In this document: positions 1-64,000 of the stretch, piece after piece | How positions within the stretch are numbered: position 1 is the stretch's first letter | How the letters are laid out: the number at the start of each line of letters is the position of its first letter | DNA from: a virus | Lineage: Duplodnaviria > Heunggongvirae > Uroviricota > Caudoviricetes | DNA: 64,000 nucleotides | IMG/VR virus record: IMGVR_UViG_3300021431_000083 | Reading direction: 5' to 3' (one strand) | Program-made: the position numbers and the translations under genes | The notes under the pieces: generated by a model | What the model saw: only the letters and a program-made list of their open reading frames with translations | What the model was told of the DNA's origin: nothing | Databases searched by the model: none

Positions 1-1398
1 ATTTTGTGTAAAGATTGGATATTGACCACCCAACGTATCTATCTTTGTACGATTAACTGCATTATTCCTATTGGATATTTGAAAATCAAATTCTATCTTT
101 AACATTCTATTTTTCTTTAACATTCTATTTTTATCAGAAAATATTCCGCCATAAAAATCACAATGTAAAATATCATTACTTTCAATATAAATAGGTTTAT
201 AAAAATTTTCACCATTAATATATTGTAACTGATAACGATAACCAGTCATACTTTCAATTGTATTATCTTCTATAATTAACGGTAAAGAAGAAAGCTTATA
301 AGCACCTATTAAATCTCATTGTTTAAAATTTGTTTGATGTGAAGCTCGTCGTACAACCAAATTACCTTCGCTGAGAGTATTTAGTCCTTCGCTTAATGAT
401 GTAATATTTAATTTAATTATACCATTTTCATTATCAATATTTTTAGTATATTTAATATTTATATTTTGATTGGTATAATTCTCTATTGTAACAGTCATAA
501 TGATAGAATTATGATATCCGTTATTCGTTTCATATTCAATTTTTCAATAATAAGATCCTCTTGATGTATCAACAGTACAATTAATTTCATTTTTAGCATT
601 TATGTCCGCATATATTATATTTGTATCAAAATATAATGTAGATGATGCAGATATTTCAGATTGAATTTTAATTCTGTATCAAGATAGTCATTCAGTATTA
701 TTTTTTGAATATATATTTTCATCATATTTATATTTATCAAAAGTTAAATTTCCATTAACTGATATATTAGTACTTGGAAATACTGAAGAATTATTCTTAA
801 TATTAATATCAAATGTAGGAATAAAAATAGATTTTATTAAAGTTCCAGTTGACCATTCTGAAAAATTATCTTGATTATAATTTGTATAAGCAGCTAATTT
901 TAAAGCATTTGCGGCTTTATTAGAATTACTAGTCCAATAGAAGAACTCTGTTGGATTTGAATATTCTGTAGAATCCTTGGGAAGTGCGGGATAACCATCA
1001 CTACCAGTTAAATCAAATCGTAATTGAATTTTATAGTATTGATCGGGATTATAATATGGGCTAGTTTTAATTACTTGCGGTGGTATAGTAATTTTATACA
1101 TTTTTTTAGAAGAATCTCATAAAATGTCTTTCATATTTTTTACTACGCCATTTTTTTCTTCATAGCAAGAAATAGGGTAGTATTGCGGGTAAACATTTGC
1201 ACTACCATTTTTACCCGCAAATACATTTTCATTATTTCGTTGATCTACCATTGAAACATGAATAAATCTAATTTTATTTAACATATCTTCATTATAAGAA
1301 GATAGTTTAAATCACACCTCAGCAGATTCATTATAGCAGAAAGAAGGCATAAATGTCTCTACTTGCGGTGGATATATTGTGTTTATTGTTGTTGCCAT
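1..1398 (-). CDS. Virion structural protein (tail/baseplate region), runs off the left edge; needs TGA=Trp
   Basis: ATG at 1398 downstream of AAGGAGG; frame open to base 1 with 6 TGA and no TAA/TAG; joins track ORFs 688..1101 and 316..498. Confidence 0.75.
97..132. repeat. Exact 18-bp tandem duplication (ctttaacattctattttt x2)
   Basis: Seen directly; in frame, gives KNRMLK-KNRMLK. Confidence 0.9.
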
Positions 1399-1414
1399 TT
1401 TTTATTATGCCTCC

Positions 1415-2620
1415 TTACTTACCGAATTGATAAATGATTGTTGAAGAATACGGATAATTACCATCTATACTTTGCCCATAAGAACCGAATCTATCTTTTG
1501 CAACTACAGACCAATGATATGTTGTAAGATCACCATAAGTATATCAATATCCGCCGCTATCTGATGTATTATGTCCTTTAAAACTTGGGGCAATTGGACG
1601 TCTATCTGCTTCAGTTGAATATAATATTCTTTTAAAACAACTCGACCTTCCTTTAAAAGTTTTTTTGTCTGGTAAGGTACAACCTAAAAAAATAACAAGT
1701 GTTTCAAATTGTGGTCACACTTCAATATTTTTATATAGCTTAGTAGTCATTTGTGTATTATATTCACCATATGGATGGCCACAAAGATTTTGTAAATCTG
1801 GTCAAGGAGTCTCACGTATATATCCATTTTCATTAACATAAAAAGGACCATCTAAAGCATGGCCATAACGATCATCGCTTCAGCCTAAGAATTTTTGAGT
1901 TTTTCTTAAATTAGTTATTCTTCCAGCTCAACTAGAATATTTTACTTCAGTAATTTTTTTATTTAAATATTTAACAAAATCTGTACCATATAAAATCTTA
2001 TGAAAAGGAACTGATTTTTTTGTTGTTGTTATATATTTTTTCTCTTTTTCATCGTAATATTTAAAAGAAGATTGTCCTTTTATTGCCTTTTTATTAATTT
2101 TTTTTGTAGAAGTATTAGATATATTATGAACTGTTATTGTATAAGTTGGAACAGCTCAATGTGCATATAATGTTATCTCAGGCAAAATATCATCTTGACG
2201 ATAATTAAATAAAATGTCTTTTAAGTCATTTACTTCATCAATTTGTTTTCCACCATCTTTAGCTGTTCACCACCCTAAAAATGAAGCTACATCATTATAC
2301 TTCTGTAAATCTGGCAAGCCATCTTCATATTTATAATAATAATCATTTGACTTTCTATAAAAACCATCATTATAAAATGCAAAATAAACTTTTGGAATAA
2401 CCCTTTCCATCCACTTAGGTTCCGTACCTGGGATAGGACGCTCTTCTTGATTGCTATCTTTATACGTATAATTAATATCTAAATTAACTTTGCCTTTTGC
2501 ATATATCAACTCATCTTTATTATCAGTAATAACCAGTCTATATTTTTCAACATCGTCTACTATTAATTGTCTTATAGGTTTTTCAAGATTATCGCTATTA
2601 TAAACTAATGTTGCCGCCAT
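1415..2620 (-). CDS. Putative virion/tail-associated protein, 401 aa, 7 TGA
   Basis: ATG with AAGGAG; read-through of TGA gives FLGWW and FLGWS motifs; stop TAA at 1415-1417. Confidence 0.75.
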
Positions 2621-2631
2621 TTGAACTCCTT

Positions 2632-5600
2632 TTAAATACTTCCTTTATATGTATTTGGTTTCATCGTGTGAAAATTTCACTCATATTTTTTACTATCTTC
2701 TTCACTAAAAGCACCTTCAGGACTATTTTCTCTAGCTACATTTCTTAATCTCAAAGTATTACCATCACAAGCAATTCCTCAACGACAAGTATTATATCAA
2801 TCAAATAATCGTTCAAAATTTTCTGCTAAAAACTTAAAATAAGTTTTATCTTTTTTAATTAAATAAATTGCTTTCTCTATATTATTAACTTTATTATCAT
2901 CAGTATATCCTATATAAAGATTTTGCGCAGTATATAAATTGTTTTTTATAGAAACTTTACCCATAAGAGTTGACGGTCCTTCAACAGTAAGACCTTGACG
3001 ACCTTTAACAGTGATTTTATTATCAATATTTATACCAATGCTTCCATTAGAAGTAGATGATAATTGAATAAAATGTTGTTGTTGCTGATCTAAAAGTGTG
3101 GGAGCTTTCATTTGAATAAAAGCATTTCTATTCTTTAAAGTAATAATATTTTGATTAATATCAAATTCTAATTTCATGTTTTTAAAAGTAAAAGCACCTT
3201 TTTTATCATTTATTTTTATTGAATAGCCGCCGATAGTTTTTAATTCAACCTCGTTTGGACTAATAGCAAGACCAGTTTTCTTTTCTCCAACTTGTAGTTG
3301 AATTTTAGGTTCTTTTATTGTTTTTGTCACTGTTTGATCATCATTAGTTTCTTCTTTTGAAATAATATCAACAAAAGCGTTTATTCTATAATGACCATAA
3401 TCAATTAAAGTACTAGTTGCTTCAGTTCCTTTAAGGCTACTTCCATCGACAGAAGAAAGAATATACTCAGGAGTTTTTATTCGTACATACTTTTTATTTT
3501 TATTAGCAATTTGATATTGAATAATTTCATCAGGGAATGCTATTACCATTGAATTTGTATTAATAGATAAGTTTTTATTTAATTCAATTTTATTATTATC
3601 ATCGGATTGAATTTTAACTCCAAGTTTTCTATTACTATTAATTTTGCCAATTTGAATAAAACTAACAGCTTCTGGAACAGTATTTTCATTATTACTAGAA
3701 TACTGACTTGCAGCTAATTCAATATATCCATTTTCAGCAGTACGAATACTAATACTACCCTTATCATTTTGTCCTTGTGTAATATAAGTAGTATTCATTT
3801 GAGATTGAGATCCTGCTTTTTGAGAGAATATTTTTAATATAGGAACATAATTATTAGAAGAACCTTCTGCTCTAATTTCTTGACCATAAAGTTTAGGAAC
3901 TTTTCCAAAAGCATGAATTACACCAGTGCGGCTATATGTTTTTTTATCTTGTAGTCCCGCACTAAAAAAGCGACCGTTTTCATCAAGACCAACTCGGATA
4001 AATTCTTTTCAATAGATAAGTTGACTATTCAGAGTATCCTCATCAATTTCAATTCAAGTATTACTCGAATTTTTATTTTCAAATCAACTATTTACAATAC
4101 TAGCTTTTAAAGTTTTTATGTACTTATAAGATATATTATTATTTTCAGCTATATCAATATATCCATATTGTTTTTCATTACTAGTATTTTTAGAAGAATT
4201 AACTCTTTTTTTATAATCATCATAAAAACATACTCTTATACTATTATTTTTTCAATATGTCTTAGCATAAGGCACACCTTGAAGATTTATAATACCGGTA
4301 TCATCTTTAACGCAGAGTTTGTTTTCACCTTCTGGTGGTTTTGATCCTTTAACATTTTCTTTATTAATAACTCAATTAATATTAAAATTTCAAAAAACTT
4401 CTTGTTTATTATAATTATTTGAATTATTTTGATCCTTATCTCATTGTCCTCAATTTATTTGATAAATATTTTTATCTATCATGTCAACAACGTTCTCATT
4501 AATTAATCTATAAAAAGGTATCGTGTTAATGTCAGTATTTACAGTATTTTTAATACTATCCTTCTCTGCCGTTGGAGTACCTACGCTAAAATTTTCTTTC
4601 CCTTCATTTTGAACAACAGTAAAAGTAGCAATACGTCGTTCAGTGCCAGTAGTATCTTTATCAGTATTATTGTATGTCGATAATTCTGTTTCATACCCGA
4701 ACGTTTCAAGAGTATAGGCACCTTCTGAATAAAAACTAATATATCAAGGATTTTTAGCAGTCGGAAGCGGATAACTTGAATTATTTATTGTTTTTATTGT
4801 TGTAAGATTTTCCCATCGAGTATCTTGGTTACTAAAGAATTTTGCCAAATTCGTACCATCTGTTTGGCCTGCTGCAATCGCGGTATCACTACCTTTTCTT
4901 CAAAGAATAAAATCGTATTTTTTAGAAGCATAACTACTATTTAATTTAAAATAAAAATCACATGTATTACTATATTTCATAAAAGTATATTTTCCAGAAA
5001 TAGAATTTTTTCCATCATCTAATTTTGCTGTAAAACTAATCTCACTTCCAGAACTATAATTTTGAATTGACACCACACCATACTCAGAATCAGGAGCTGC
5101 TTTATATTGCTCAGCAGAATCACTTTTAATAGTACATGAACAACAAGTATTTATAGTATATTCTTTAATATAAAGTTTTAATTTTAATTTATACTCCGTA
5201 TTTTTAATTAATCCATTATTATTAATAGAATATAAAATAATATCTGAATTATTTTGAACTGTTAAAAGATCAATTATTTCTGATTCTAATATTGCTGCAT
5301 TAATTCCATCATTATCATTTAAAACAACATAAAATTGTAAATAATTGTCCGCAGAATTATCTAAATTTATTCCAGATAAATCATAGTTTATTTGACTATT
5401 AGAAAGTTTTATCTGATAAAGACTTTTATCTGATGTATTTTTTACAGTACCTATTTTAATATCTTTTTCAATAGACCCTGTTTTATTACCTTGATCATCA
5501 ACAACTTCTTGAATATCTTTAGTGTATTCAAAATTAACCACAAAACTGTTATTTGAAACAGTTTCTTCAGTAGTACATTGCCATCCTTCACCATTAGAAG

Positions 5601-8600
5601 AACCTTCTGTACCATTTTTCCAAGTTAAATTATTTGGATTATAAGTAATAACACCAGTATCTTTATCACAAGAAAAAACAGGATTATCACCAGCAGTCTT
5701 TTTAAAATTAACTTCTGGTAAAATATCTTTAAAGAATACACTACTATTTATAATTATATTTGAATTACTCCCACTATTTACTCAAATTACATTATTATCA
5801 TCTTGATAATAGGGTTGATAATTACCATTTGCATCTGTAGCTAATGAATAGATATAATATTCTGTATCTTTTTGGGAAGTAAAACTATTAATATTTTTAT
5901 CAGCTTGATAATCTCTTACAATAGTTACATCATTATTTGATGTTACATCTCTGTAACCAAAGTGTAAATCATCTATATTTTCATCGCCAAATCCAGAAGT
6001 ATGCTGAATAATAGAAAATAATGAATTATCACCAGGATCCATTCTTAATTCAAGACTATCACCAGGACTAATATTATTATACTCATCTTGATAATTAATA
6101 TTTTGTAAATTATTATTTTTATAAACTTCACCTTTAACATGAATATAAGGCTTATCTGAACTAAGAATAATACCATGCTTATCGTGCGGCACCATGATTT
6201 TTTCTAATTTATCAGGATGATCTATATCATGTCGAATATCATAAGTACCATCAACTATATTATAAAGAAAACGATTACCAATTTTCCAGTTACCAATTTT
6301 ACTAATACCGCCAGGAATTAATTCAATACGACCTTCATCAATTCCTACATTTGAATCCTGTTCTGGTAAACCTAAATAAGTACTACCTGTTTTAGCATCA
6401 ATAAAAACGGATTGTTTTCCATTTGAATAACCTATTAAACCAACTTTTTCAGCTCTGTCAGCTTTATCTAAAACACTCTCTGTCTTATTTTGGTCTGGTG
6501 TTGCTGTATTACTAATAGCACCCATGACCATACCTGTGAAAGTATTTGTAGCACTATCTTTAATACCCGCACCTATCTGCGGTGTTAAAATATGGTCATC
6601 ACCAATTTCAACATTTGTACCATCTCAACCATTCAAAGCCGCAAGTTCATATGTATTTAAAGTCATTATAATTGGTACATATACTTTAGCAACTACATTA
6701 TCCTTATTACCTTGTTTAATATGGACAGTACCAACAACATTGTTATTCATATATAAACCATTAAAACTCTTCTTAGAGTCAGGCATAACATAAATTCAAT
6801 TTAATTGTTGCGGATTTTGACCTTTTAACAATGACATTCAAACACTTAATGTGTCAGATTCTTCTGCTACATGATACTTCTGAACATTTAAAAATAATTG
6901 TTGATAATAAGCATATATTTTTCTAATACCATCATATACTTCTGCCATTTCTTCCCCAGAAGCTTTTATAACAGCTTTAATATTTTCTTTAATATTATTT
7001 AAATCTCAATCAGTAACAATTGAAGCATACTGGTTCTTAACCTTTTCTTTTAAATCCTCGCTTGGATAATTATAATTATTATCATCAAGACGAGCATTAG
7101 TTTCATCTACTAATAGATTTAAATAAGCCATTAATACTTGAGTACACTCAACCAATAGAGGATGACCTGTATATGTAGTCTTATCATTATATTCATTTAA
7201 ATAATCTTTTATAGTTTTATCAAACAAAGTACTCTTATCTATTATCGCAGTACTACTATCATCAGAACGACTATTATAAACCTGTTTATATCTTTCAACT
7301 AATTGTTCTATATTAGAAATATCACCAACATTAGTATTATTTTGAATATGCAAACGATCTTCTGTAATAACACTTGGTCACTCACTATTTCAGATAGCTT
7401 GTACTGCATCATATGGCTTAGTACATGCGGCGTTTATATCTTGCCGCGACTCATATTCTTCTTTTATCGTTTCAAATAATTCAGAATATATTTGATAAAC
7501 AATATTAATTTGACTATTTTCTCTATCAGGACTATCTTTTAAGAAAGTATCTAGTCTATTCCAAAGTGAATCTAATTTTATCGGAATGGTTAATAAACCA
7601 TCTATAGCAATTCGCTCAATATCATTTAAGAATCTCTTAATATATTCTTGAGTATTGACATCTATAGCACCTTCCGCACAAGCTTGTCCTCTATCTTGAA
7701 TATCTAAAATCCTAGTTTGAACACTAACAACATCATCAGCAATTTTTAATGTTGTATCTCCTTCTTTTACTCTTGGAGTTTTAGATAATAATAAATTAGG
7801 ATTATTATTTGTAGGACCGCCAGTAGCAATTCATTCTAAATAACCATTTCAATTTTCTAATTCTACATGGACACCCTGATTCTCATTATAAATAGGATTA
7901 TTACCACTAGAATCATATAATACAGTTTTTAAAGTATCTTTATCTATAATCCTAATAGGATAGTGCTCATAATCATATCCGCTTTCATATTCAATCGCGG
8001 GAATACCATAAAAACTATGATAATATTTACCTTGTAAACTAACTTCTGCTTCTACAATTCTAGTATCTAATTTAGTTAAATCACCATTATATGCAATGGT
8101 ACATTCATTACTGTTATTACTAGTACCACTTACTTTATAGGTGCGGCCTTGATCTTTAGAGGTTCCCGCAATAGTTCACTTAGTATTATATCCTAATACT
8201 TGATTATTATTAGTATATAAATTAGCTTCTAAAACAGGAGTACTAATAGAATTACCATTATTATATTTAGTACTATTAGACTGTTTGATAATTGTTAAAG
8301 GTTCATCAACTGGAATATTAATAGTTGTAATTTTATCTATCTTTACAACAGTATCAGTACCATTTGTACCAATCTCACCAATTTTAGTAAATAATAAATT
8401 TGTAGTTTGTCGATATTCTGTACCATCCGCATGTGTGACAATAACAGTTAATTGATTATTGTTACATTGACTATCATAACTATCTTTAATGCTCAACGGA
8501 TAAACATTACCAGAATAATATCTTTCACCAGTAACTACATCTGTTTGCAATCCAAGAGTAGGAATATTTATTAAGGTTCTATCTTGCGGCACAACCCATC

Positions 8601-16404: not shown

Positions 16405-16602
16405 ATGACTAAATATCATGTGTCTCAATCTGAAAATGGAAAAACTATTACCTATGGTGATTTTAATGCAAATAGTCCAAAAGAAGCTATTAACATGGCT
16501 TGCGGCGTAGCTAAGAAAGCATATCCTCAGTATAACCGCAAGATACCTTTTATAGTTAAAGAATATGGTCATGAAACAGAGAAAGTGAAATATCATGAGT
16601 AA
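16405..16602 (+). CDS. Hypothetical early protein
   Basis: GAAAGGA SD, stop TAA. Confidence 0.75.
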   Translation: MTKYHVSQSENGKTITYGDFNANSPKEAINMACGVAKKAYPQYNRKIPFIVKEYGHETEKVKYHE

Positions 16603-17080
16603 ACATAGTAAAATTCTAGACTCTTGGAAAGATAAAATTATTGTAGGTGGAATTAGAGTTCCTGTTTATTATGTAACAAAGTCAAGTAAATATGGAATTT
16701 TCACTTGTTCTGTTAAACCATGCCCGCAAGATTATCCTAATATTAATGATTGGGATGGTTATCGTTTTGCTGAACGTAAGTGCGATATTGAAATTGCTCA
16801 TACTAAAGCTAAAGTATTAAAAGAACGTGCCCGTGGTATCCTCAATGTTCATAAAACTCTTCATACTAAATATAAAACAACTAAACAATATGAACTTGGC
16901 ATCGTATTAGGCGATATTTATTATCAATATGAATTAGCTCAAGAAGAGTATGAAAAAGCTTACGCTCAATATAAATATATGAAAGATTCATTCCCAGATT
17001 ATACATCCCGCATGATCGAACGTCGTAAACAGCTAAATAAGAAACTTGAAGAGAAACGTGCGGCCGAACTGCAGGATTAA
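16595..17080 (+). CDS. Hypothetical early protein
   Basis: Overlapping ORF, stop TAA. Confidence 0.8.
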   Translation: MSKHSKILDSWKDKIIVGGIRVPVYYVTKSSKYGIFTCSVKPCPQDYPNINDWDGYRFAERKCDIEIAHTKAKVLKERARGILNVHKTLHTKYKTTKQYELGIVLGDIYYQYELAQEEYEKAYAQYKYMKDSFPDYTSRMIERRKQLNKKLEEKRAAELQD

Positions 17081-17087
17081 GTATTTA

Positions 17088-17136
17088 AGCAGATATTGAG
17101 ATTTTCTTGACATCTGCTATTTTTATATGGTATAAT
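17088..17136 (+). promoter_or_regulatory. Terminator-like hairpin containing the -35 box of a sigma70 promoter
   Basis: agcagat...atctgct stem plus T-tract; TTGACA 17107-17112, TATAAT 17131-17136. Confidence 0.75.
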
Positions 17137-17158
17137 TATATAAATAGAAAGGATAATT

Positions 17159-17362
17159 ATGCTTAGCGGACAAGTTGGTAATTATAAATATTATACTTTA
17201 GACGATATACAAGATATGATTTATAATGCTCAAGATGACAATACTGAAGAAGAAGCTTGGTGTGTAATTAAAAAGGATATACTTGAAATGGCTGTATTAA
17301 TTAAACAATATGCTGAGATACTTAATGATTATGAATTTAGATATGAAGACGATGGGAGGTAA
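17159..17362 (+). CDS. Hypothetical protein
   Basis: GAAAGGA SD. Confidence 0.75.
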   Translation: MLSGQVGNYKYYTLDDIQDMIYNAQDDNTEEEAWCVIKKDILEMAVLIKQYAEILNDYEFRYEDDGR

Positions 17363-17364
17363 GA

Positions 17365-19221
17365 TTGAATAATTTATATAAAGAAGATAGTATTGAATCA
17401 TTATCTCCTTTAGAACATGTTCGGCTTCGTCCAGGTATGTATGTCGGAGATACAGCAGATGCGACACAATTAGCAATTGAAATTCTTGGTAATGCTATTG
17501 ATGAATATAATATTGGTCATGGAAATAAAATTGAAATTCAAATTGATGATAATGGTATTAGTGTAATTGACGCTGGACAAGGCTTTCCAATCAATGTTCT
17601 TCGAGATGATGGAGAAACAGTTCTTCAAGCATCTTTTGATGTTATTAATACTTCAGGAAAATACAGGGATGATGGAGTATATGAAGGAACGGCAATTGGT
17701 CTTAATGGAATTGGTGGAAAATTAACTAACTTTCTTAGTCATTGGCTAAGAGTAATTTCCTTTAATTCAAAAGGAGAATATGAAGATATTCTTTTTAAAG
17801 AAGGTATATTTGAAAAAAGAGAAACTGGGAAGAAGAATTCTCATAGTTCTGGAACAATCGTCTCCTTTCAACCAAGCAAAGAATTTTTTACTTCACCAAA
17901 AGTAAATGAAACTAAACTCCGCAATTTCTGCGAAGATATTACTTGTCTTTGCCCTGGATTAATTATTATATTTAATGGCGATGAGATTAAACACAACGGC
18001 ATTCAAGATTTACTTAATCGCTCTCTTGGAAATAGCCTTTCTATTTTAAATAATAATTTTATTATCCAAGAGCAAGTGAATAAACAAAAACTTGATTTAG
18101 CTTTAACTTATTGTGATAAATCATCTACGAATATTATTTCTTATGTTAATTGCGGCTTAACTACTGCAGGACCGCATATTACGAGTATTAAATCATGTAT
18201 TACTCGTACTTTAAATAAATGGGCAAAAGAACAAGGTATACTAAAAGAAAAGGATAAAAATCTTGAAGGTGCGGCATTGCAAGAGGGACTTGTTCTTGTT
18301 TGTAATATTACCGCTGAAAATGTTGCCTATGACGCACAGGTTAAAAGCAATATCACTAAAATTGATACTACTTTTATATCTTCAATTCTTAGTGAACAGT
18401 TGGAGATTTGGCTCGACAATAATGTTACTGATGGAAAGAATATTATTGAAAAAGCATTAATTGCTCGCAAAGCTGCCGAAGCTGCGAAAAAAGCACGTGC
18501 CGCAGTTAAAGCCAATAAAACTAAAAAATCATCTAGTAAAGTTAAGATTCTTCATCCAGATAAACTAAAAGATGCAGAATACCTTGGTGAAGATAGTACA
18601 CTTCTTTTAGTAGAAGGATTGTCAGCTGGCGCATCAATGGCTGTTGCTCGTGATAGACAAAAATATGGTATTCTAATGTTACGTGGTAAATTAATCAATG
18701 CTTTTTCCAACAGTAAAGAAAAATTAGAGAAGAATGAAGAAATTCAATTACTTCTTAAAGCATTAAATATTATACCTGGTGCATATGATCCATCTGATTT
18801 GCGGTATGGACGTGTTGCAATTTGTACAGACTCCGATAGTGACGGTTATCATATTGGTCTTTTAATTGCAACCGCTTTGCAACATTTTTGTCCGGAATTC
18901 ATCGAAGAACAACGTCTATGTTGGTTACGTTCACCATTATACATTGTTAAAACTAAACAAGGTGAACAATATTATTTTACAGATGAAGAAATGAATGCTG
19001 CTCGTGGTAAAATAACTGGTGAAGTACAGCGCAACAAAGGATTGGGTAGTCTTAGTGCAGATCAGGCTAAAGCGTCTATGTTTGGTAAAAATCAGCGCAT
19101 GGATATTTTAAATCCAACAGAAGAAGCAATTAATTTACTTAAAGCATTAATGGGAAGCTCAGGTATCGCCCGCAAAGAGTTTGTATTCAATGAAATTGAT
19201 TTTTCAACCGTACGTGAGTAG
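17365..19221 (+). CDS. gyrB: Type IIA topoisomerase subunit B (GyrB/ParE-like)
   Basis: EHVRLRPGMY, GHKL ATPase GLNGIGG, Toprim EGLSA and DSDSDG, NKGLG; TTG start. Confidence 0.93.
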   Translation: MNNLYKEDSIESLSPLEHVRLRPGMYVGDTADATQLAIEILGNAIDEYNIGHGNKIEIQIDDNGISVIDAGQGFPINVLRDDGETVLQASFDVINTSGKYRDDGVYEGTAIGLNGIGGKLTNFLSHWLRVISFNSKGEYEDILFKEGIFEKRETGKKNSHSSGTIVSFQPSKEFFTSPKVNETKLRNFCEDITCLCPGLIIIFNGDEIKHNGIQDLLNRSLGNSLSILNNNFIIQEQVNKQKLDLALTYCDKSSTNIISYVNCGLTTAGPHITSIKSCITRTLNKWAKEQGILKEKDKNLEGAALQEGLVLVCNITAENVAYDAQVKSNITKIDTTFISSILSEQLEIWLDNNVTDGKNIIEKALIARKAAEAAKKARAAVKANKTKKSSSKVKILHPDKLKDAEYLGEDSTLLLVEGLSAGASMAVARDRQKYGILMLRGKLINAFSNSKEKLEKNEEIQLLLKALNIIPGAYDPSDLRYGRVAICTDSDSDGYHIGLLIATALQHFCPEFIEEQRLCWLRSPLYIVKTKQGEQYYFTDEEMNAARGKITGEVQRNKGLGSLSADQAKASMFGKNQRMDILNPTEEAINLLKALMGSSGIARKEFVFNEIDFSTVRE

Positions 19222-19229
19222 GAGAGAAC

Positions 19230-21563
19230 ATGAATGAAGTATTAGAATTAGAAGATGTAATTAAAGAATCTTTTACTCAGTACGCAGGCGCAGTTATTCA
19301 GTCTCGTGCGCTTGTAGATGTGCGGGACTGTATTAAACCATCTGCTCGTCAGGTGTATTATAGTTTATTCACAGACAAATTTACATCCGACAAGCCTTTC
19401 AAAAAAACACTCAAAGCAATTGGTTCTGCAATGCGTTTTTATATTCATGGTGATGCATCTTGCGAAGGTATTATTATGCGTTCAGGCCAACCGTTTGCTA
19501 TGCGTTATCCTTTAATTGAAATTGAAGGTTCATATGGAACACTTACTGAAACAGGTAACTGGGCCGCGAGTCGTTATACATCATCAAGATTATCTCCAAT
19601 ATCAAATTATTTATTACAAGATACTAATAAATATACTATTGATGAGTGGATAGACAATTATGATGATACAGAACAATATCCACGAGTCCTTTCTTCTCTT
19701 GGATATTACAATATTGTGAATGGATCAACTGGTATCGCAGTTGGTCTTGCATCTAGCATTCCACAATTTAATCTTGGTGAAGTAAACAATGCTTTAATTA
19801 AACTTCTTCAAGATAAAAATGTCTCTGATGATGATATTCTTTGTTATCCTGATTTTGCAACTGGCGCAACTTTAATTAATAAAGCGGAAGTTGCTGCAAG
19901 TCTTAAACAAGGTAAGGGTAAAGCTTGTATATTACAAGCAACAATTAATTATGACGACAAAGAAAAAACTCTAATCGTCACTGATTTGCCCTATGGCGTA
20001 TATACTAATACTATTTGCGGCGAAATAGCTAAATTAGTGTCTGAAAATCCTGATATTGGAATTACTGGTATTAATGACTTAACTGGTGAAGATGTTTGTA
20101 TCAAAATTTATCTTGATAAAAGCGTAGACCAAGAAAAAATTAAACAAATATTATATGCTAATACATCACTTCAAAAATCATATAGTATTAATATGACGAT
20201 GCTTGAAGATGGTCGTTTTCCAAAAATTTATGGATGGCGGCAAGCTTTACAAGCTCATCTTGACCATGAAAAAATAGTTTATATTAATCTATATCAACAA
20301 GAACTTAACAAACTAGAGCATCGTTTAAAAATTGTTGAAGGAATTATTAAAGCAATTGCACAGATTGATGAAGTTATTAAAATTATTAAACAATCTCCTA
20401 GCACTAAAGAAGCTAATATTAATTTACAAAAGTTACTTATTATAGATGAAGAGCAGGCTAAAGCTATTCTTGATATGAAATTATCTCGATTAGCTAAGCT
20501 TGAAGTTGATAAATTCATTGAAGAAAAAATTCAATTACTAGATCGTATTTCTACTATTAAAGCAATTCTTAAATCTGAGGAATTATTAAAGCAAGAAATG
20601 ATTAAACGATTCCAAGAGGTAAGTAATAAATTTAGTGATAAACGTAGGACAGTTATTGCGGAACGAGCTGCAGCAAAAACCACTAAGACGGCAAAAGAAA
20701 AAGTTGCAGCTATACCTGAAGATGTAGTTGTTTATATGAATAAAGATAGATATATTAAATCTATCCCTGTTAAATCATATCGTCGTGGTAAAGAGCAAGT
20801 TATAAATTTATTTAAAACAACAACCGCAGATATGGTTATGTTATTTACTAGCACAGGCCGCATGTTCCGTATTAAATTAAATACAATTAAAACTTGCGGC
20901 ATGAATGATAAGGGAACTGCTGTAGGTTCTATTGTTCAACTTGAACCAGATGAATATATTTTGAACATCGTTCCCAATACAGCGCAACAAGATTTTATCT
21001 TATTCACAACTAAAAAGGGTATTGTTAAGAAAACTAAATTAAAAGATTATATTAGTAGCACTCAGAATCTTCGTGGCATCAAAGCTGTAAGTATTAAAGG
21101 TGATGATGAGCTACTATCTGTTTCTCTTGGATATGATACAGATAATATTATTCTTGTCACTGGTAATGGTTATAGTATTAGATTTGCAGCAGATGATATT
21201 AATGCACAAGGTAAAACAGCTAGTGGCGTTAAAGGTATTACTCTAAATGATTCTGATTATGTAGTTAGTACAATTCTTTGTAATGAAGAAGATCCCATTT
21301 TTATTTTTGAAGAGGGTGGTTATGGAAAAATAATCGCTAATAAAGTTTTTCAGTCTCAAGGACGTGGCGGAAAAGGACAAAAAATTAAAACAAATAATAC
21401 TATTCTATGTGCTATGAGTGTTAAAATAACTGATGAACTCTACTTAGTACATTCATCTAATAATATTTCTTCTATCAAGATATTTACAATTCCATTTTCG
21501 ACTAAGAATGATACAAGTAAAAAACTGTCATCTAAAATAGTTCTTGACATATATACCTTATAA
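19230..21563 (+). CDS. gyrA: Type IIA topoisomerase subunit A (GyrA/ParC-like) with beta-pinwheel CTD
   Basis: DCIKP, HGD, AASRYT (catalytic Tyr), C-terminal blades including QGRGGKG. Confidence 0.93.
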   Translation: MNEVLELEDVIKESFTQYAGAVIQSRALVDVRDCIKPSARQVYYSLFTDKFTSDKPFKKTLKAIGSAMRFYIHGDASCEGIIMRSGQPFAMRYPLIEIEGSYGTLTETGNWAASRYTSSRLSPISNYLLQDTNKYTIDEWIDNYDDTEQYPRVLSSLGYYNIVNGSTGIAVGLASSIPQFNLGEVNNALIKLLQDKNVSDDDILCYPDFATGATLINKAEVAASLKQGKGKACILQATINYDDKEKTLIVTDLPYGVYTNTICGEIAKLVSENPDIGITGINDLTGEDVCIKIYLDKSVDQEKIKQILYANTSLQKSYSINMTMLEDGRFPKIYGWRQALQAHLDHEKIVYINLYQQELNKLEHRLKIVEGIIKAIAQIDEVIKIIKQSPSTKEANINLQKLLIIDEEQAKAILDMKLSRLAKLEVDKFIEEKIQLLDRISTIKAILKSEELLKQEMIKRFQEVSNKFSDKRRTVIAERAAAKTTKTAKEKVAAIPEDVVVYMNKDRYIKSIPVKSYRRGKEQVINLFKTTTADMVMLFTSTGRMFRIKLNTIKTCGMNDKGTAVGSIVQLEPDEYILNIVPNTAQQDFILFTTKKGIVKKTKLKDYISSTQNLRGIKAVSIKGDDELLSVSLGYDTDNIILVTGNGYSIRFAADDINAQGKTASGVKGITLNDSDYVVSTILCNEEDPIFIFEEGGYGKIIANKVFQSQGRGGKGQKIKTNNTILCAMSVKITDELYLVHSSNNISSIKIFTIPFSTKNDTSKKLSSKIVLDIYTL

Positions 21564-21572
21564 TGATATAAT
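21544..21572 (+). promoter_or_regulatory. sigma70-type promoter
   Basis: TTGACA-N17-TATAAT with TG extension. Confidence 0.85.
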
Positions 21573-21573
21573 A

Positions 21574-21606
21574 ATAGAGTAAGGTAAAAGCCTTACTCTA
21601 TTTTAT
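21574..21606 (+). terminator. Intrinsic terminator after the topoisomerase genes
   Basis: atagagtaagg/ccttactctat stem plus T-tract. Confidence 0.8.
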
Positions 21607-21623
21607 TATAGAAAGGAACTATA

Positions 21624-22784: not shown

Positions 22785-22792
22785 GTAATCAT

Positions 22793-22954: not shown

Positions 22955-22957
22955 TTA

Positions 22958-41878: not shown

Positions 41879-41897
41879 AAAAACCTCCTTTTGATAT

Positions 41898-41964
41898 ATT
41901 ATATCAAATTATTTACGTATTTGTCAAAAATTTTTTGACAGAACCTTTTATTATATGTTATAAT
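41898..41964. promoter_or_regulatory. Back-to-back sigma70 promoters
   Basis: TTGACA-N18-TATAAT on both strands. Confidence 0.85.
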
Positions 41965-41989
41965 ATATATATAAAATGAAAGGAGTATT

Positions 41990-42409
41990 ATGGATAAAAT
42001 TGAAATGGAAATGAATGAAGATGGATCAATTTCAACTAATTCATTATATGCATTAAATCAACAAGCCTATGATACTGTTAGTCCACTTGGTATTAAAGAA
42101 AAACATGAACAACTTAATAATATATATGAATGGGTAAAAGAACAACGTTGTGATTATACGATGCTTTTGTGCCATGACCGCAGAGATTATACTATTTTTA
42201 GATATAAAACTCGTGAAGATAAAAAATATCACAATGGTACTTTTAATGATTTGAAAGAATGTTTAGAGAATCGCGGCAAGATTTTAGATGTTCGTTATCT
42301 TCAAGACCAAGATGCTTGGGAGATATGGATTAGAATTTTTGAAGATGGGGGGCATCAAAATTATATGTACATGTTCTTTAATGCTGAAGGATTTATCGTG
42401 GAGGTATAA
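41990..42409 (+). CDS. Conserved phage hypothetical protein
   Basis: AAGGAG SD; complete ORF. Confidence 0.8.
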   Translation: MDKIEMEMNEDGSISTNSLYALNQQAYDTVSPLGIKEKHEQLNNIYEWVKEQRCDYTMLLCHDRRDYTIFRYKTREDKKYHNGTFNDLKECLENRGKILDVRYLQDQDAWEIWIRIFEDGGHQNYMYMFFNAEGFIVEV

Positions 42410-42663
42410 TGAAAAATTTATATATCTATGCTTATCCCGCACAGATGTTAACTTTTCAATTAATTGAAGATAATCAAATCTTAACAAATGAAAATTGTAA
42501 TTTTGAAGATAACGTGCGGATGACTGCTAAATATCTTAAAGAAGAGCCAATTGATTCAATTTTTATTATTGGAGATACCCCTTTTGCAGATAAAATTGGA
42601 ACTATGCTGCATACCAATTTTGAAAAAAGAGTAAAGATTGAGAGGATTAAAAAAAATGCTTAA
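42409..42663 (+). CDS. Hypothetical protein
   Basis: Coupled ORF. Confidence 0.75.
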   Translation: MKNLYIYAYPAQMLTFQLIEDNQILTNENCNFEDNVRMTAKYLKEEPIDSIFIIGDTPFADKIGTMLHTNFEKRVKIERIKKNA

Positions 42664-42943
42664 ATCACTTATTAAAGCAACAAATGAAGTTCGTGTAGAA
42701 ACTGAAGAAGAAGCAGACCAGTTTCATAAAGAACTTCAACAGGAAGCAGAAAAAATTGGGTGTATTCTTTCAACCTTTACGAAAACTCTTCGCCAAAAGA
42801 AGTCTAAAGGTGAAGTAATTGATGAATATTATCAAATTAAATATACTTATGTATTTAATGATATTAAAGAACCTTATACTTATTTAAAAAATATTGAGTA
42901 TAATATGACCAACTCCGCGGAAGAAGGTGCTTTATCTTGGTAG
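42656..42943 (+). CDS. Hypothetical protein
   Basis: ATG after GAGGA; overlaps both neighbours. Confidence 0.7.
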   Translation: MLKSLIKATNEVRVETEEEADQFHKELQQEAEKIGCILSTFTKTLRQKKSKGEVIDEYYQIKYTYVFNDIKEPYTYLKNIEYNMTNSAEEGALSW

Positions 42944-43362
42944 AAATTTCAATTCACTATTTACCAGGTTCACCACATCTTGAAGTAACTGATTATGGTG
43001 GGTGTATTGACCTTTATAACTATGAAGAGATATGTTTAAAAGAAGGTGAAAAAGGGTTTATCAACTTTGGTATTTCAATGAAATTACCAGAAGGGTATGA
43101 TGCGCTTATTTTTCCTCGCAGTTCCACCTTTAAACGTTATGGTATTTTAATGACAAATTCTGTTGGATATATTGATAATAGTTATAATGGAACTGATGAC
43201 TATTGGAAAGCTTGCGTTTATGCAACTCAAAATATTACAATTCCAAAAGGAACAAGATGTTTTCAATTTAGATTAATTAAAAAACAACCTTCTATTGATT
43301 TTGTTCAAAAAGATACCTTAAATAGTGTTAATCGTGGTGGATTCGGATCGAGCGGTGTATAA
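42937..43362 (+). CDS. dut: Trimeric dUTPase
   Basis: PRSS, GYIDNSY, QF, RGGFGSSG motifs. Confidence 0.92.
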   Translation: MVEISIHYLPGSPHLEVTDYGGCIDLYNYEEICLKEGEKGFINFGISMKLPEGYDALIFPRSSTFKRYGILMTNSVGYIDNSYNGTDDYWKACVYATQNITIPKGTRCFQFRLIKKQPSIDFVQKDTLNSVNRGGFGSSGV

Positions 43363-43856
43363 TGTTTTATTTAGCATTAGATCAAGCTCTTCAAACTAGT
43401 GGTTATGCTATTTTTGAAAATGATGAACTAATTAAATGAGGAACTTTTTCAACAAAAGCATCAGATCCAATAGAAGAAAGACTTTATACAATTCAACAAG
43501 AATTAACTAAATTAGATCAACAATATAACATAGGGTACGTATTCTTTGAAGATACACAAAAGCAAGTTAATTTAGATACTTATAAACGCTTATGCTATGT
43601 TCAATCTGTAGTTATGTTATGATGTAGAAATCGTGGTGGTATTAGATATAATATCTTATCTCCAAGTCATTGACGAAAGATATTAAAAGATAAATATAAA
43701 ATCAACTGAGGCCGTAAGCGAGAAGAACAAAAACAAGCTGCTTTAAACTGGGTGCAGCAAGAATATAAAGGTGATTTCACTACAGACTCTGCAGATGCAA
43801 TTTGTATTGGTAAAGCAGGATTGTTAGAATTAAATAAAAATAGGAGTGCTTTTTAA
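43362..43856 (+). CDS. ruvC: RuvC-like Holliday junction resolvase, 164 aa, 4 TGA
   Basis: LALDQA, FFED, SPSH(W)RK, DSADAICIG; absent from the ORF track; stop TAA. Confidence 0.85.
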
Positions 43857-58499: not shown

Positions 58500-60269
58500 T
58501 TAGTGCATAATGGGTTTTGTATACATCATAAAATCTGATATATTGCGGCTAGAACGTTTTCTACCTTTATCTTCTTCTAACTTACAATAATATAATCCAT
58601 ATATCAAAGCAGAAAATTTATCGTGTTTAATTTTTTTATTTGCGGGCTTGAGCAAAATATTGGCACCTTCAGATTCTTCAATTAAATTTGCCATCTGTTC
58701 CCGCAATATATTTGTTTGAACATACGGAAGAAGATATTCCGCACGTTTTTCAGGTGTCATTTTTTTACCTTGGGCCTGAGCCATTAATTTATTTTTAGCA
58801 ACACTATCATCAATTAAGAACTTAATTTTACCATGCTGTAATTGAGTTTGACAATATGAATACATTTCAGTATTTAATGGAGCAGTTGCTTTCATTATAT
58901 ACATTGCATTATGAATAGTATCTGGTGTTTCAAATCTTTTATATTTTTGTCGTTCATCGTCATCTTTGTATTGAACACCTCAATTATATAGTGTTTCACC
59001 TGTCTCTGGATCAATTTGATCTGTTACTAAAAAGTCAACTAAACCACTACCAAGGCCATTTCCGTCTACAACCGCAATTTTACAACCATATTGATTAAAC
59101 AACTGTTTAATTTTAAGAGCCTGAATACCGAAATGTTCCGCATCAATAGTATAAATATTAACGAGTTGTTTTAAAGGCACCCCACTTGGTGCAGGAGATA
59201 CTTTAAAAACACAAATTTCTGTCGTACAATTAAAACGTCCAACGTCTACTCCGAGTATATAATATGTCTTACTACTATTTCGACCATTAGGTTTATATTC
59301 TGGAAGATTTAATATCCTGTTACGATCAAATACTTCATAACTAAAGAATGCGGATTCAATATCTCCTCCTCAGTTACTATTATATTCTCGATCAAAAGTT
59401 GCTTCATTAAAAGTACCTTCCATCTTTAAGTCTGATACGAAACTACCAGGAATAAGTCCTTCTTTAACAGGAATACGTCAATCTCCACCAAAAATAAATG
59501 CTTCTGTTGGTCGTGCAACCATTTGACAAAGCATTTGAATAAGTCTATCATATGCATAAGTATTTTTATATCCCGCAGAAGTAATAAATGTTTGAGATTG
59601 ATTAAGTATTTCATTAGGATCTACATCACCATTAGGGAGACGTCTTGAAACATTCATTGTAGGAATAATAACTTGCTGCAATAAATCTTGGTCAAGAGTT
59701 GCGGCCTCTTCCATTAGCCCTGCTTGGAAACGTCTACCACGAGTTTTATCACTGCATGCAACATTCTCTATAGTACTACCATTACGGAAAGTATAAATAA
59801 CACTGTCTTTAGTTTGACGTGTTTTTACATTTGCCATACCACGAGTATCCCATAAAATTTCTTTATTAAAAGCAGGTATTAATTTACATATTTCACTAAG
59901 CTTATCACTCAAAATTGAAGCTGACTGCTCTTTACCTTCTGAAACTGTGAACAAGTGCGCTCCAGGATATAGTATAGCTTTGATCATTAATGCCATAACC
60001 GATAAAAATGATTTAGAATACGCACGACAGAAAACCGCATATGAATACTTGTGCCGCATAATTACCCGCAACGTGATACGTTGGAAAAAATAAAAATGAA
60101 ATGCATTATCTGGATTGAGACTACATAAATAATCTACGAATCTGTCTGGATACATTCTCCAATAGGCAATAACATGACGATATTCACTTATATTTTGCCG
60201 CAATAAATCTTCTGTTATTTCGATTTGTGTATTATCTTGTTTAGCGGTAAGTAAATTACTAAGAGCCAT
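58500..60269 (-). CDS. terL: Terminase large subunit, 589 aa, 3 TGA
   Basis: CRAYSKS (Walker A-like), RGRRF, MEEA (Walker B), ITSAG, GVDVGR nuclease motif, KHDKFSAL; stop TAA. Confidence 0.9.
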
Positions 60270-61477
60270 TATAACTCACCCGCAATCATACGTGCTTCTT
60301 CTTCAATTTCACTCTCAAGATATTGATAGAATTCTTCTGCTTCTTGATCAGTGATTGCGTTCGCTTCCTCATCTGCCGCAGACAAAATAAAATTATCATT
60401 CATCATATCTTCACTCGCAGCTTTGTCTTTTTCAGCTTGTTCAAGTTTTTCAATATATGACTCGATAAGATTGCCTAATCCCAGTTCTTTTGTTACTAAA
60501 TTATAATTGTATTGTTTCATATCTTTAATACAGAAATCTATCTTATCTTCTGGATAATCATCTGGTAATGGAATTTGCGGGATGATTCCGCCTTCTTTTT
60601 CACAGAACAGGACAAGTTCTCCAATAGAGTCAAGATAGCGAGTTTGCCCTTCTTTATTTTGAGCTTCTGTGAACTTAGCAGATTTGCGGAGAGCGTCATA
60701 TGAAGATTGTAATGATTTATATGTTGAAGCATCGCCCACGTCTAAAGCTTGATCCATTTTAAGCTCAAGTTTACAAATTTGTTTAAGCGTAAGTTCACGG
60801 TCTACATTAAGTTCATATTCATTAGCATACTTAGTATAAGTATCTTCCATATGTACTCATTCAGAAGGTTTATATACGATGCCCCACTTAGCCGCAAGCA
60901 TCTTTTTATCTTCATCTGTTAATTCTGCTAAAATGTCATCTTCATTTATACCTATTTGCTCTTGGTCAAAAGTGTATTTGCGGCTTTGCTGTCTTTCCAC
61001 TCCCCGCATAAGAGGATTAAGAGTATCAAATTCTGCTTGAGAAATTTCTCCCGCATCGAGTTTAGCTTGAAGATTCATAAATTCTTCTTGCTCATTTTCA
61101 TTAGTTAAACTTACTCGTGCGGCTGCTTCTTGTTGGCGTTTTTCTTCTTCTGCGGCTAGACGTGCTGTGTCTGCGTAAGTGAGATTGCGATATTGTGTCA
61201 TGTTCATGCGCCGCAAGTAACGACCAATAACTGAAGCTCCTGAAAAGTTTGCGGGATTTTTATCATAGGCATTTTGAGCTTCTTCTTTTCAATCTCGTTC
61301 AATATAGGGTACATCGAATTTTTCAAGTATTCATTTAAATGTTGAAGGGTCGCTGTTATCTATGTACATTGTGAGACAAGTTTTGCATACTGGATAACGT
61401 TCATGATTTTTCATCATGAAAAATTCTTTTTCAGCCTTCTCTCTGCCGCACTGTGTACAAGCAATTTTTTCTGGCAT
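60269..61477 (-). CDS. Zn-finger protein upstream of terL (small-subunit candidate), 402 aa, 3 TGA
   Basis: CTQC...CKTC; joins track ORFs 60857 and 60269; stop overlaps the terL ATG. Confidence 0.75.
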
Positions 61478-61486
61478 AGTCTCCTC

Positions 61487-62569
61487 CTATTTTTTCTTTT
61501 TTTTGGTAGAACGGCATTCTTTACACTGTGGATAATATCCATCACTAGAAATAGGAGAATGATCAAAGAAAAGAGGGTTTGCGACTTTCCATTCGCCGCA
61601 TTTAGAACATTTTTTCCATAGCCCGTATTCTTCTTGGGTAAAATGTCAAGTAATTCATTCTTTGCGGGCTTGCTTGGCTAAAATGTTTGGAATTTGTTTA
61701 CGTCAAAGAGTAGAGTAATATTGTTCTGAATGTACGACACCATGCTCTTGCCGCATAAGTTCAACAATATCTTTATTTTTTAAACCATCTATTTTTCAAA
61801 CAATTAAATCATATAAAATTGGATTATCAGGATTGTCTTTTAAAGTTCTATCTATGAGATCTTCTAAATCTACAAGCAATCACCGCAAATCACTATTAAG
61901 ATCTTCATCAATTTCTTGTTTTAATTGAGAATAATAGTTTAGTAAGAATGATATGTGTTCTGGTTTAAGGAGTGTTAAAGTTGATTTAATTTCTAGCTCA
62001 CCATCTGGTAAAACTTTTACTTTTTCTTCAAGATCTATATATCCCATTTGCCGCATTTGCGGGGAGAGTCGTCCGGTTGCATTCTGTTTATATGATGCTT
62101 TAATAATATAGATTTCTTGTCATGTTTCAATTATTTGTTGTTTTAGTTTGAAACGTTTTGAACTATCTGTTGTAGATTCAAAAGCTTTTTTAAGAGATTG
62201 TATTGTTCTCATTTTCTCTTGGAGAGCAGGGTCGTTTAAAGCTTCTTCTTCTGAAACTTTTTCTTTACGATCTAATAATTGGTTTTTATCATTATTAATT
62301 AATGCATGAAAAGCATCTTCTCCACCTTCTAAGCTATTAACAATATCTTCATATGATTTTTCTCTTTTTTTAATAATTGTTTCTCTGTTCTTTGTAATTA
62401 AATTATGGCCTTTCGTTTGACCTTTTTCTCTGATAAATAAAATATAATCACCTAAATAATTAAGATATTTTTGAGTTAACTGTTCTTTAGGAGTGGAAGC
62501 TATGACTTCTTCAACACATTTAGCTCTTTCTTTTGGTGTTTTAAGTGAATAATCTAATTTTACTGTCAT
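61487..62569 (-). CDS. Putative transcription regulator (sigma region-4-like HTH plus C-terminal Zn finger), 360 aa, 6 TGA
   Basis: V(W)KIDGLKNKDIVELM...SEQYYSTL(W)RK; CSKC...CKEC; stop TAG. Confidence 0.65.
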
Positions 62570-63611: not shown

Positions 63612-63869
63612 CTATGCGGCACGGCGGCGTTTCAGCTCTTCCACAGCAGCCCTTACAGTTTCAGCGATTTCGCGGCGTTCAGCGCGAGTCACGCTGTAGT
63701 CATCGCTCATTTCAGCTTCGAACACCCGTTCGTCAGCTTCTTGCATTGCGGCTTCCAGGGTTTCTGTGGTGAAGTGTTCGCAAGTTTTAGCTTCTGCTAC
63801 CATTTCGTACGCTTCACGGGCGGCCATTGCGTTGTAGCGCTTTTTGTTATTTCTGCTGTAGTTCGTCAT
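63612..63869 (-). CDS. Small GC-rich hypothetical protein
   Basis: GAGAGAGAAAGG SD and upstream promoter. Confidence 0.75.
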   Translation of the reverse strand: MTNYSRNNKKRYNAMAAREAYEMVAEAKTCEHFTTETLEAAMQEADERVFEAEMSDDYSVTRAERREIAETVRAAVEELKRRRAA

Positions 63870-63902
63870 CTCTGTGCCTTTCTCTCTCTTGCTTACAGCT
63901 AT

Positions 63903-63932
63903 ATTTTAGCATGAGTCAGCGCAATACTGCAA
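63903..63932 (-). promoter_or_regulatory. sigma70-type promoter
   Basis: TTGCAG-N18-TAAAAT with TG extension. Confidence 0.6.
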
Positions 63933-63977
63933 GACTTGTGGTGATATCTCCACACAATCTACACAATTAAGTGATGG

Positions 63978-64000
63978 CGCTCGCTGTGGGCCGCAGCGAG
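63978..64000. repeat. Palindrome copy 3 (cut by the window edge)
   Basis: cgctcgctgtgg-g-ccgcagcgag. Confidence 0.8.

Follow-up and report, generated by a model that had tools for sequence, protein, structure and literature searches.

The 64,000-nucleotide stretch of DNA analyzed here (hereafter the window) stems from the Caudoviricetes record IMGVR_UViG_3300021431_000083 of the IMG/VR collection and raises the question why a single short word, the pentamer TGCGG with its complement CCGCA, recurs so frequently on both of its strands and what might read it. In the window 221 copies are present (97 on the plus and 124 on the minus strand, mean spacing 288 bp), while base composition predicts 27.5. 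TGCGG/CCGCA is the most over-represented pentamer with a z score of 33 against a first-order Markov model, and among 20 pentamers of the same composition the runner-up reaches 66 copies, a 3.3-fold difference. A first-pass annotation made from the sequence had counted 28 copies in positions 1-10,100 and 18 copies in positions 59,700-61,450. Both counts were reproduced exactly, the accompanying estimate of about 27% G+C is near the actual values (27-30% in the first 10 kb, 31.7% for the window), and the claim of a strong excess on both strands is confirmed, as it holds against same-composition controls as well as against the shuffled sequences described below. A literature search for TGCGG together with phage returned primer sequences only.

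TGCGG(C) is a word of the DNA itself

The excess is graded. It has its root in the tetramer GCGG (305 copies vs 81 expected, 3.8-fold), rises to 8-fold for TGCGG and peaks at TGCGGC (103 copies vs 4.4 expected, about 24-fold). The window belongs to a large, A+T-rich and TGA-recoded phage: when TGA is read as an amino acid, the coding fraction increases from 81% under the standard code to 94%, fragments join into an open reading frame (ORF) of 2,622 amino acids with 26 in-frame TGA codons, and ARAGORN detects one UGA-reading tRNA in the window. Codon-level controls, which build on crude longest-ORF gene calls, were run accordingly with two translation tables. Observed copies of TGCGG numbered 188 vs 56 expected from synonymous-codon shuffling with table 11 (z 28), 208 vs 55 with code 4 (z 26.7), and 188 vs 32 from shuffling of codon order (z 27). 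Against a synonymous shuffle that preserves every dinucleotide, including those at codon junctions, the 208 observed copies compare with 117 expected (maximum of 134 in 150 shuffles, z 14.8), and for the hexamer TGCGGC 98 observed copies compare with 35 (z 15.8). TGCGG remained the top word under all four shuffle nulls.

Sequence information around the GCGG core is restricted to T at position -1 (0.72) and C at position +1 (0.42), with none further out. Around GCGGC, T is found at the 5' side in 81% of cases vs A at the 3' side in 47%, and the word is an asymmetric T-GCGG-C. Two other shapes were considered and rejected. A hairpin, a repeat element or a periodic array is not in line with the lack of flanking information, hairpin pairing and preferred spacing, and a palindromic TGC-S-GCA dimer site is contradicted by the asymmetric flanks and by a 7-mer count that is accounted for by its sub-words.

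All six strand-by-frame classes are enriched (2- to 13-fold), TGCGG density is 3.9 per kb in non-coding vs 3.4 per kb in coding DNA, and sense and antisense copies occur at ratios of 110:97 in the window and 205:178 in a 140-kb relative. The remark of the first-pass annotation that otherwise rare codons like CGG and CCG keep appearing in the context of the word can be put into numbers: CGG makes up 44% of Arg codons after a codon ending with TG and 2% elsewhere, and CCG 65% of Pro codons before CA and 6% elsewhere. Likewise, CGC accounts for 66% of Arg between C and A (6% elsewhere) and TGC for 74% of Cys before GG (22% elsewhere), while codon controls with shifted context revealed no comparable effect. 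The example given for the region around position 62,055 is also correct, as positions 62,051-62,063 read GCCGCATTTGCGG, corresponding to ccg caa atg cgg caa on the minus coding strand; direct reading shows GCCGCA and TGCGG 2 bp apart on this strand, together employing the rare codons CCG for Pro and CGG for Arg. TGCGG(C) is thus shown to be a DNA-level word that is neither a protein nor a codon effect, and since codon choice is bent to keep it on both strands, something must read or drive the DNA itself. That a word of five to six bases reshapes codon choice genome-wide implies a sequence-specific process acting throughout the evolution of the phage.

These data also bear on the explanation that no reader exists at all and that the excess arises as a by-product of restriction-site avoidance, codon-pair bias or clustering of G+C-rich codons. 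Palindromic CpG words and GATC are indeed depleted in the window (observed/expected ratios of 0.47 for CCGG and 0.37 for TCGA, 119 copies of GATC vs 176), distant relatives exhibit some 3-base periodicity around GCGG, and in the Bacillus subtilis phage SPO1 an excess of GCGGC is caused solely by an in-frame Ala-Ala codon pair. However, the word is enriched and therefore opposite in sign to GATC, TCGA and CCGG as targets of avoidance. Other non-palindromic CpG words are depleted, too (0.4-0.9), whereas CCGC stands at 3.8; all other NCGN words lie at or below 1.2, most of them depleted, and about 23% of the CpGs of the window reside in GCGG/CCGC. The most depleted pentamer is GCAGC/GCTGC (52 vs 80), and this GCWGC deficit of about 28 copies is too small for a surplus of about 190. 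Together with the excess in every frame, in antisense and in non-coding DNA, the negative shifted-context controls and the survival of the word in the dinucleotide-preserving shuffle, this largely refutes the by-product explanation, which we regard as very improbable.

Along the window the word is distributed in a random manner. Gaps are Poisson-like (coefficient of variation 1.2 in the window, 1.0-1.2 overall), the largest one in the window spans 2,563 bp, and long gaps are not under-represented. The two orientations are randomly interleaved with runs test z values of +1.5 in the window and +1.8 in the 140-kb relative. The densest stretch (positions 59573..61596) harbors 20 irregularly spaced copies in about 2 kb, in both orientations, within the minus-strand late genes at 58500-60269 and 60269-61477; in a 2-kb histogram, 21 copies fall into 60-62 kb, where local G+C amounts to 35%. 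The sparsest stretch, with three copies in 4 kb (positions 2001..6000), is situated within the TGA-rich ORF of 2,622 amino acids and shows that word density varies, though gaps overall fit a Poisson process.

Loss and gain of the word among relatives

Thirteen relatives from IMG/VR with polymerase identities from 95% to 49% were available, and comparisons among them are not independent of each other. The GCGG core is enriched in all 13. Close relatives favor T-GCGG-C, and distant ones GCGGCG, GCGGCC, GCGGGA or GGCGGA, also under synonymous shuffling. The 140-kb relative, which is 96% complete, contains 412 copies vs 77 expected that are evenly spread and without polarity (orientations 212:200).

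Between genomes of about 90% identity, conservation is 0.61 for TGCGG vs 0.42 for composition-matched G+C-rich pentamers. At synonymous third positions, ordinary G/C has changed in 47% (non-CpG) to 59% (CpG) of cases. Within the word, about 33% of the CpG positions and 13-27% of the non-CpG positions 2 and 5 have changed (comparisons with relatives L006, L002 and L003; p 0.03 to 0.0002), and all four G/C positions of the word are protected at synonymous sites. Gains are accelerated as well. Ten word-creating transitions were observed vs 2.4 at generic rates, i.e. about four times as many, and TGTGG was converted to TGCGG in 27% of cases vs 4.5% for other NNTGG to NNCGG changes; these counts are small and were polarized by majority rule among four roughly equidistant lineages, after the distant outgroup L004 had been rejected for polarizing gains and losses, as turnover made it unreliable. 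The 8-fold (pentamer) to 24-fold (hexamer) excess is thereby shown to be kept by a weak per-site bias that slows loss and speeds gain. Both effects together are in line with each site having a weak advantage of about e^2, or a transmission bias equivalent to it, which would match an equilibrium excess of roughly 8-fold. Protection from mutation alone or correction at a single position does not fit the combined pattern of loss and gain.

An equivalent transmission bias need not be adaptive. It is conceivable that a host- or phage-borne enzyme favors G:C in the word by context-specific mismatch correction or biased gene conversion, such that the word builds up without a function of its own and despite mutations being strongly biased towards A+T, comparable to Vsr at Dcm sites. 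We consider this possible but doubtful. As with a mutational process, both strands are affected alike, copies are spread uniformly with Poisson-like spacing, and non-coding DNA is as densely populated as coding DNA; enrichment increases stepwise from GCGG (3.8-fold) via TGCGG (8-fold) to TGCGGC (24-fold). Furthermore, exchange with neighboring words takes place mainly at the central CpG (TGTGG<->TGCGG<->TGCAG), where T becomes C on one strand or the other, as it does in very-short-patch repair, and no pentamer is more depleted than GCAGC (52 vs 80). The Dcm/Vsr system of Escherichia coli, with CCWGG enriched and CTAG depleted, resembles our case as a strand-symmetric, genome-wide word with a target for T:G correction; the flux here is at CpG. 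On the other side, protection at positions 2 and 5, outside the CpG, is no weaker than at the CpG itself, so that one-position repair cannot account for the pattern, and gains at positions 2, 3 and 4 occur at similar per-donor rates. The effect thus reaches beyond the deaminable cytosine. Searches with PF00145 (C5-methyltransferase), PF03852 (Vsr) and PF02384 (N6_Mtase) did not retrieve a match in five relatives including the 96%-complete genome, while control genomes matched, so the enzymes of very-short-patch repair were not found there. The magnitude differs greatly, too: an 8- to 24-fold excess is far above the known effect of Dcm/Vsr in E. coli, and no enzyme with such a word-favoring correction is described, both of which count against a drive. 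A pair of C5-methyltransferase and Vsr encoded by the host is conceivable. Should a repair or conversion drive prove true, no stronger bias of this kind would be known from any virus.

Candidate readers of the word in phages of Bacillota

Judged by its predicted genes, the replication and recombination module of the window places the phage among the SPbeta, Enterococcus H1 and Enterocloster PMBT24-type phages of Bacillota. The closest deposited phages by polymerase and helicase (tblastn) all infect Bacillota and comprise the SPbeta group of B. subtilis, Enterococcus phages of about 138 kb, staphylococcal and lactobacillal siphoviruses and phages of Enterocloster bolteae; gene order is common to the window and Enterococcus phage H1. 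A nucleotide search of the phage collection with the window gave no match.

Some of these and other cultured phages carry a milder form of the excess. In the E. bolteae phage CB473P2, GCGGC occurs 99 times vs 34 (z 13.4) and TGCGGC 32 times vs 8.9, the latter with orientations of 17:16. The virulent B. subtilis phage SPP1 contains 191 copies of GCGGC vs 88 (z 14.8), and in phi29, which also infects B. subtilis, 40 copies vs 12.2 (z 9.6) are followed in rank by GGCGG and TGCGG. Tabulation of all xGCGGy words identifies D-GCGG-C as the enriched form in all three. No GCGG-core excess is present in the temperate B. subtilis phages SPbeta (AGCGG 41 vs 47) and phi3T (AGCGG 25 vs 25), in Enterococcus H1 despite its gene order in common with the window, in the Staphylococcus epidermidis phage PG-2021_5, which lacks GAAGCGG altogether in 50 kb, and in an unrelated 208-kb gut phage with a T4-type portal and 29% G+C. 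We found no description of a GCGGC or GCGG bias in Bacillus phages in the literature searched, and the milder GCGG-core excess in cultured CB473P2, SPP1 and phi29 is a new finding. It shifts the question from metagenome contigs to laboratory systems in which it can be tested directly.

It is conceivable, albeit less likely than not, that GCGG-core words constitute a hitherto unrecognised genome-wide signal with lineage-specific flanks in virulent phages of Bacillota, from phi29 and SPP1 to the TGA-recoded phages of 140 kb from the rumen. In that case the reader would be either a conserved host factor other than the canonical Chi-AddAB pair or AddAB itself with a specificity much broader than AGCGG, and the 24-fold extreme of the rumen clade would be owed to its DNA being so rich in A+T. 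New are the tests for selection at the level of single sites, the tests for polarity and spacing, the lack of a conserved methyltransferase and the comparison with cultured phages, which weakens a simple Chi reading.

The first-pass annotation had suspected a selected DNA signal, for example a Chi-like site that protects against host helicase-nucleases. The former part is supported by frame independence, density in non-coding DNA, the use of rare codons, protection at synonymous sites and faster gain; the Chi-like specifics are possible and are weakened by the new controls. Still, a Chi-like mechanism with an AddAB/RexAB-type helicase-nuclease is the leading candidate that can be named, to be held with caution and at less than even confidence. 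Known AddAB words (AGCGG in B. subtilis, GAAGCGG in Staphylococcus aureus) have a 3' GCGG core (bioRxiv 10.1101/2021.07.08.451572; PMC4614115). The phage word is likewise short and asymmetric with a 3' GCGG core and a variable 5' extension, its density is comparable to that of pentameric Chi in a host chromosome, and the cultured phage relatives infect Bacillota; it differs by its 5' T, a strong contribution of the 3' C and the lack of polarity. The word is over-represented relative to composition and codon usage, as a Chi word would be (z 27-28 in synonymous and codon-order shuffles, 14.8 with dinucleotides preserved). Apart from the core and the affiliation with Bacillota, the asymmetry, which is as expected for single-strand reading, and a likely permuted genome speak for this interpretation, and the lack of a conserved phage methyltransferase or Vsr is compatible with it.

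The reader would accordingly be an enzyme of a Bacillota host that recognizes the GCGG-core word on single strands. Breaks in phage DNA might arise at any place, through restriction, CRISPR or fork collapse or as the ends left by headful packaging. An AddAB/RexAB-type enzyme could enter at either end, would meet a correctly oriented word within about 0.6 kb and would there switch from degradation to RecA loading and repair. The genome is probably circularly permuted like those of cultured relatives; PMBT24 is pac-type and circularly permuted (PMC11035940), and the same packaging type is inferred for the related CB473P2. With breaks anywhere and a probably permuted genome, both orientations would be useful everywhere, so that no polarity would arise. 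The earlier suggestion that both orientations fit the protection of a linear genome is reasonable, albeit not diagnostic. Changing flanks may reflect different host enzymes, with T-GCGG-C in the window, D-GCGG-C in Enterocloster and Bacillus phages and, likewise, S-GCGG-C and G-GCGG-A/G in distant relatives. Should processing of DNA ends by the host prove true, a Chi-like sequence would be predicted for the first time for Clostridia-type hosts of gut and rumen, and the word could serve as a sequence tag by which uncultured phages are assigned to hosts.

A considerable number of observations weigh against the Chi-like mechanism. Orientations are balanced (97:124 in the window, 212:200 in the 140-kb relative) without terminal clustering, and no switch in orientation accompanies flips in GC skew or gene direction in either sequence. 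Poisson-like gaps mean that nothing selects against long gaps. In S. aureus, 89.7% of 'Chi' sites are co-oriented with replication (10.1101/2021.07.08.451572), and phages rich in Chi are polar (LLS 20:3, MD8 32:0) or, in the case of P1, position-structured (PMC12315714). LLS, P1 and MD8 resemble our phage in carrying a host recombination signal far above chance that is apparently selected; their octamers, however, occur about once per 2 kb, at 20:3 or 32:0, clustered near the genome end and typically without a recombination module (PMC12315714, PMC3784561), whereas the window features a pentamer/hexamer once per 0.29 kb in non-polar, uniform distribution alongside RecJ-like, AAA_24 and RuvC-like genes. 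With recombination genes present and a uniform distribution, the phage does not fall into the LLS/MD8-type class. The presence of its own recombination genes (RecJ-like, AAA_24, RuvC-like) is a point in itself, as lambdoid phages so equipped have few Chi sites. Identity with the Chi of the host is not borne out either, as the Chi of the respective host is not in excess in SPbeta, phi3T and Staphylococcus PG-2021_5, and in SPP1 and phi29 it is D-GCGG-C, not AGCGG in general, that is enriched. SPP1 has an excess of AGCGG only where C comes next, and its GGCGGC exceeds AGCGGC. AddAB of B. subtilis recognizes the 5' A through specific hydrogen bonds (PMC4614115), and the B. subtilis phages show no preference for A. 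The core excess of phi29 despite protein-capped ends weakens the Chi-like mechanism further. A search for Mu-Gam inhibitors in strongly and weakly enriched phages did not yield a credible match in any and speaks neither for nor against the mechanism.

Phi29 and SPP1 inform the remaining explanations as well. The DNA ends of phi29 are protein-capped, its replication is protein-primed and it has no primase, while SPP1 relies on the host primase. That these two phages with unrelated replication machineries and a common host show the same core indicates a host-borne process, which would be in line with a mutational or conversion drive. Temperate SPbeta and phi3T, in contrast, replicate with the B. 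subtilis chromosome and yet are devoid of the excess, which speaks against such a drive. The word could also be adaptive for the phage through a host-borne reader unrelated to AddAB that reads the duplex in either orientation, for instance part of a defence that spares tagged DNA or a DNA-organizing or repair protein. The signature of selection at synonymous sites and in gains is consistent with this, a duplex reader or a genome-wide tag would go well with equal, interleaved orientations and even coverage, and the core is common to unrelated Bacillota phages including phi29 without free ends. The enriched form in SPP1 and phi29 differs from canonical Chi, and the lineage has kept a second, independent dispersed word (TCCAAGAG, see below). 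The strong 5'/3' asymmetry, on the other hand, is seen more typically with readers that are monomeric or bind single strands, and as phages of Staphylococcus and Enterococcus do not have the word, the factor would not be universal in Bacillota. No GCGG-specific factor besides AddAB is known from Bacillota, which counts against this explanation, too, and we rate it as rather unlikely.

A reader encoded by the phage itself appears unlikely indeed. The word could be the start or recognition site of its own primase or replisome, in the primase version a G+C-rich primer template in A+T-rich DNA, or a target of another phage DNA-binding or DNA-modifying protein. The window encodes its own primase, helicase and polymerase. 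The DNA primase (29316..30389, plus strand; phrog_47, E 1.4e-32) adjoins the DnaB-type helicase and is the sole phage-encoded single-strand sequence reader identified within the window. About one copy per 0.6 kb and strand is within the range of Okazaki fragments and phage primase sites comprise 3-5 nt, which would suit a primase, and flank preferences shift along the phage phylogeny. However, the core excess occurs in SPP1 with host primase and in phi29 without any, Enterococcus H1 and SPbeta have the same replication module and not the word, and neither a strand switch nor the regular spacing of primase sites is seen. The alternative of the first-pass annotation, a binding or modification site for a phage protein, fares no better with respect to modification, as no phage methyltransferase is conserved. 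The only one found is an N6/N4 DNA methyltransferase in a single relative, the 140-kb genome, where it resides between the RecJ-like gene and the polymerase (G001:C1:36138-36839; PF01555, E 1.5e-38, two in-frame TGA). The same slot of the window (32130-32750) is occupied by a GIY-YIG nuclease, pointing at a swappable cassette and not at a common cause of the word.

The DNA uptake signal sequence (USS) of Pasteurellaceae was also compared. It is a dense word on both strands, and TGCGG forms the inner core of the Hin-type USS AAGTGCGGT; the phage lineage, in contrast, groups with phages of Bacillota. As no information is present outside T-GCGG-C, the 9-mer AAGTGCGGT is absent, and the combination of 9-mer and AT-rich downstream tract that defines a USS is not found.

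Gene content and further words

The replication and recombination module spans positions 16565..43856 on the plus strand and was delineated by matches to PHROGs and Pfam families. Predicted products are two topoisomerase II subunits, an ATP-dependent ligase, two GIY-YIG nucleases, an AAA_24 ATPase, a DnaB-type helicase (27845-29314, plus strand; phrog_19, DnaB-like helicase), the primase, a RecJ-like exonuclease, a DnaE-type polymerase, a dNMP kinase, NrdD/NrdG, a dUTPase and a RuvC-like resolvase. Inside the module, TGCGG density is 3.1 per kb and resembles that of the remainder of the window. The module is followed by late genes and a putative endolysin at 43968-45680 on the minus strand, which combines two ELLD domains with a GH25 domain (domain matches) and contains 13 in-frame TGA codons.

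Two genes were considered as pointers to the host and rejected. For the endolysin, only the N-terminal domain found matches, at 43-53% identity, in Coriobacteriia of the ruminant gut (Eggerthellaceae, Atopobiaceae), and these genomes have about 60% G+C vs 32% for the phage and show no excess of the word at the matching loci. The gene for a family-2 glycosyltransferase (GT2) at 40868-41878 lies on the minus strand, opposite to its neighbors. Its supposedly bacterial homologue sits on the 208-kb phage with the T4-type portal, homologues with at least 47% identity are confined to the phage clade of the window, and the next tier follows at about 33-36%. By these similarities, GT2 belongs to a gene family carried by phages and was not acquired recently from a host.

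A sigma-factor-like protein is predicted from positions 61487-62569 on the minus strand (phrog_5767, E 4e-38) by a gene with six in-frame TGA codons; its C-terminal zinc-finger region also matches the endonuclease VII, HNH and Lar-like families. Relative L010 (IMGVR_UViG_3300001487_000212; 53% polymerase identity) looks TAG-recoded, because its coding fraction increases from 0.81 to 0.93 with TAG and to 0.83 with TGA, and the genetic code seems to vary within the phage clade.

Compared with the synonymous shuffle, GATC (119 vs 176, z -6.1), TCGA, CCGG and TTCGAA-type words are depleted in the window, a usual signature of restriction avoidance. CGCGG is fully absent from phi29 and SPO1 and depleted in SPP1, which suggests strong avoidance of CGCG in B. 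subtilis phages.

The second dispersed word, (T)CCAAGAG/CTCTTGG(A) or TCCAAGAG, is present in 38 copies vs 3.8 expected, and its 8-mer in 31 vs 1.3. All copies are located within genes, e.g. at 7770(-), 18066(+), 24246(+), 36325(+), 46880(+) and 62920(+), and orientations are balanced (19:19). It is not enriched in distant uncultured relatives or in Enterocloster and B. subtilis phages; enrichment is found in close relatives (8- to 25-fold) and in Enterococcus phage H1 (5-fold). This word is independent of the GCGG word and differs from it in distribution, and its occurrence in the lineage means that multiple genome-wide words exist.

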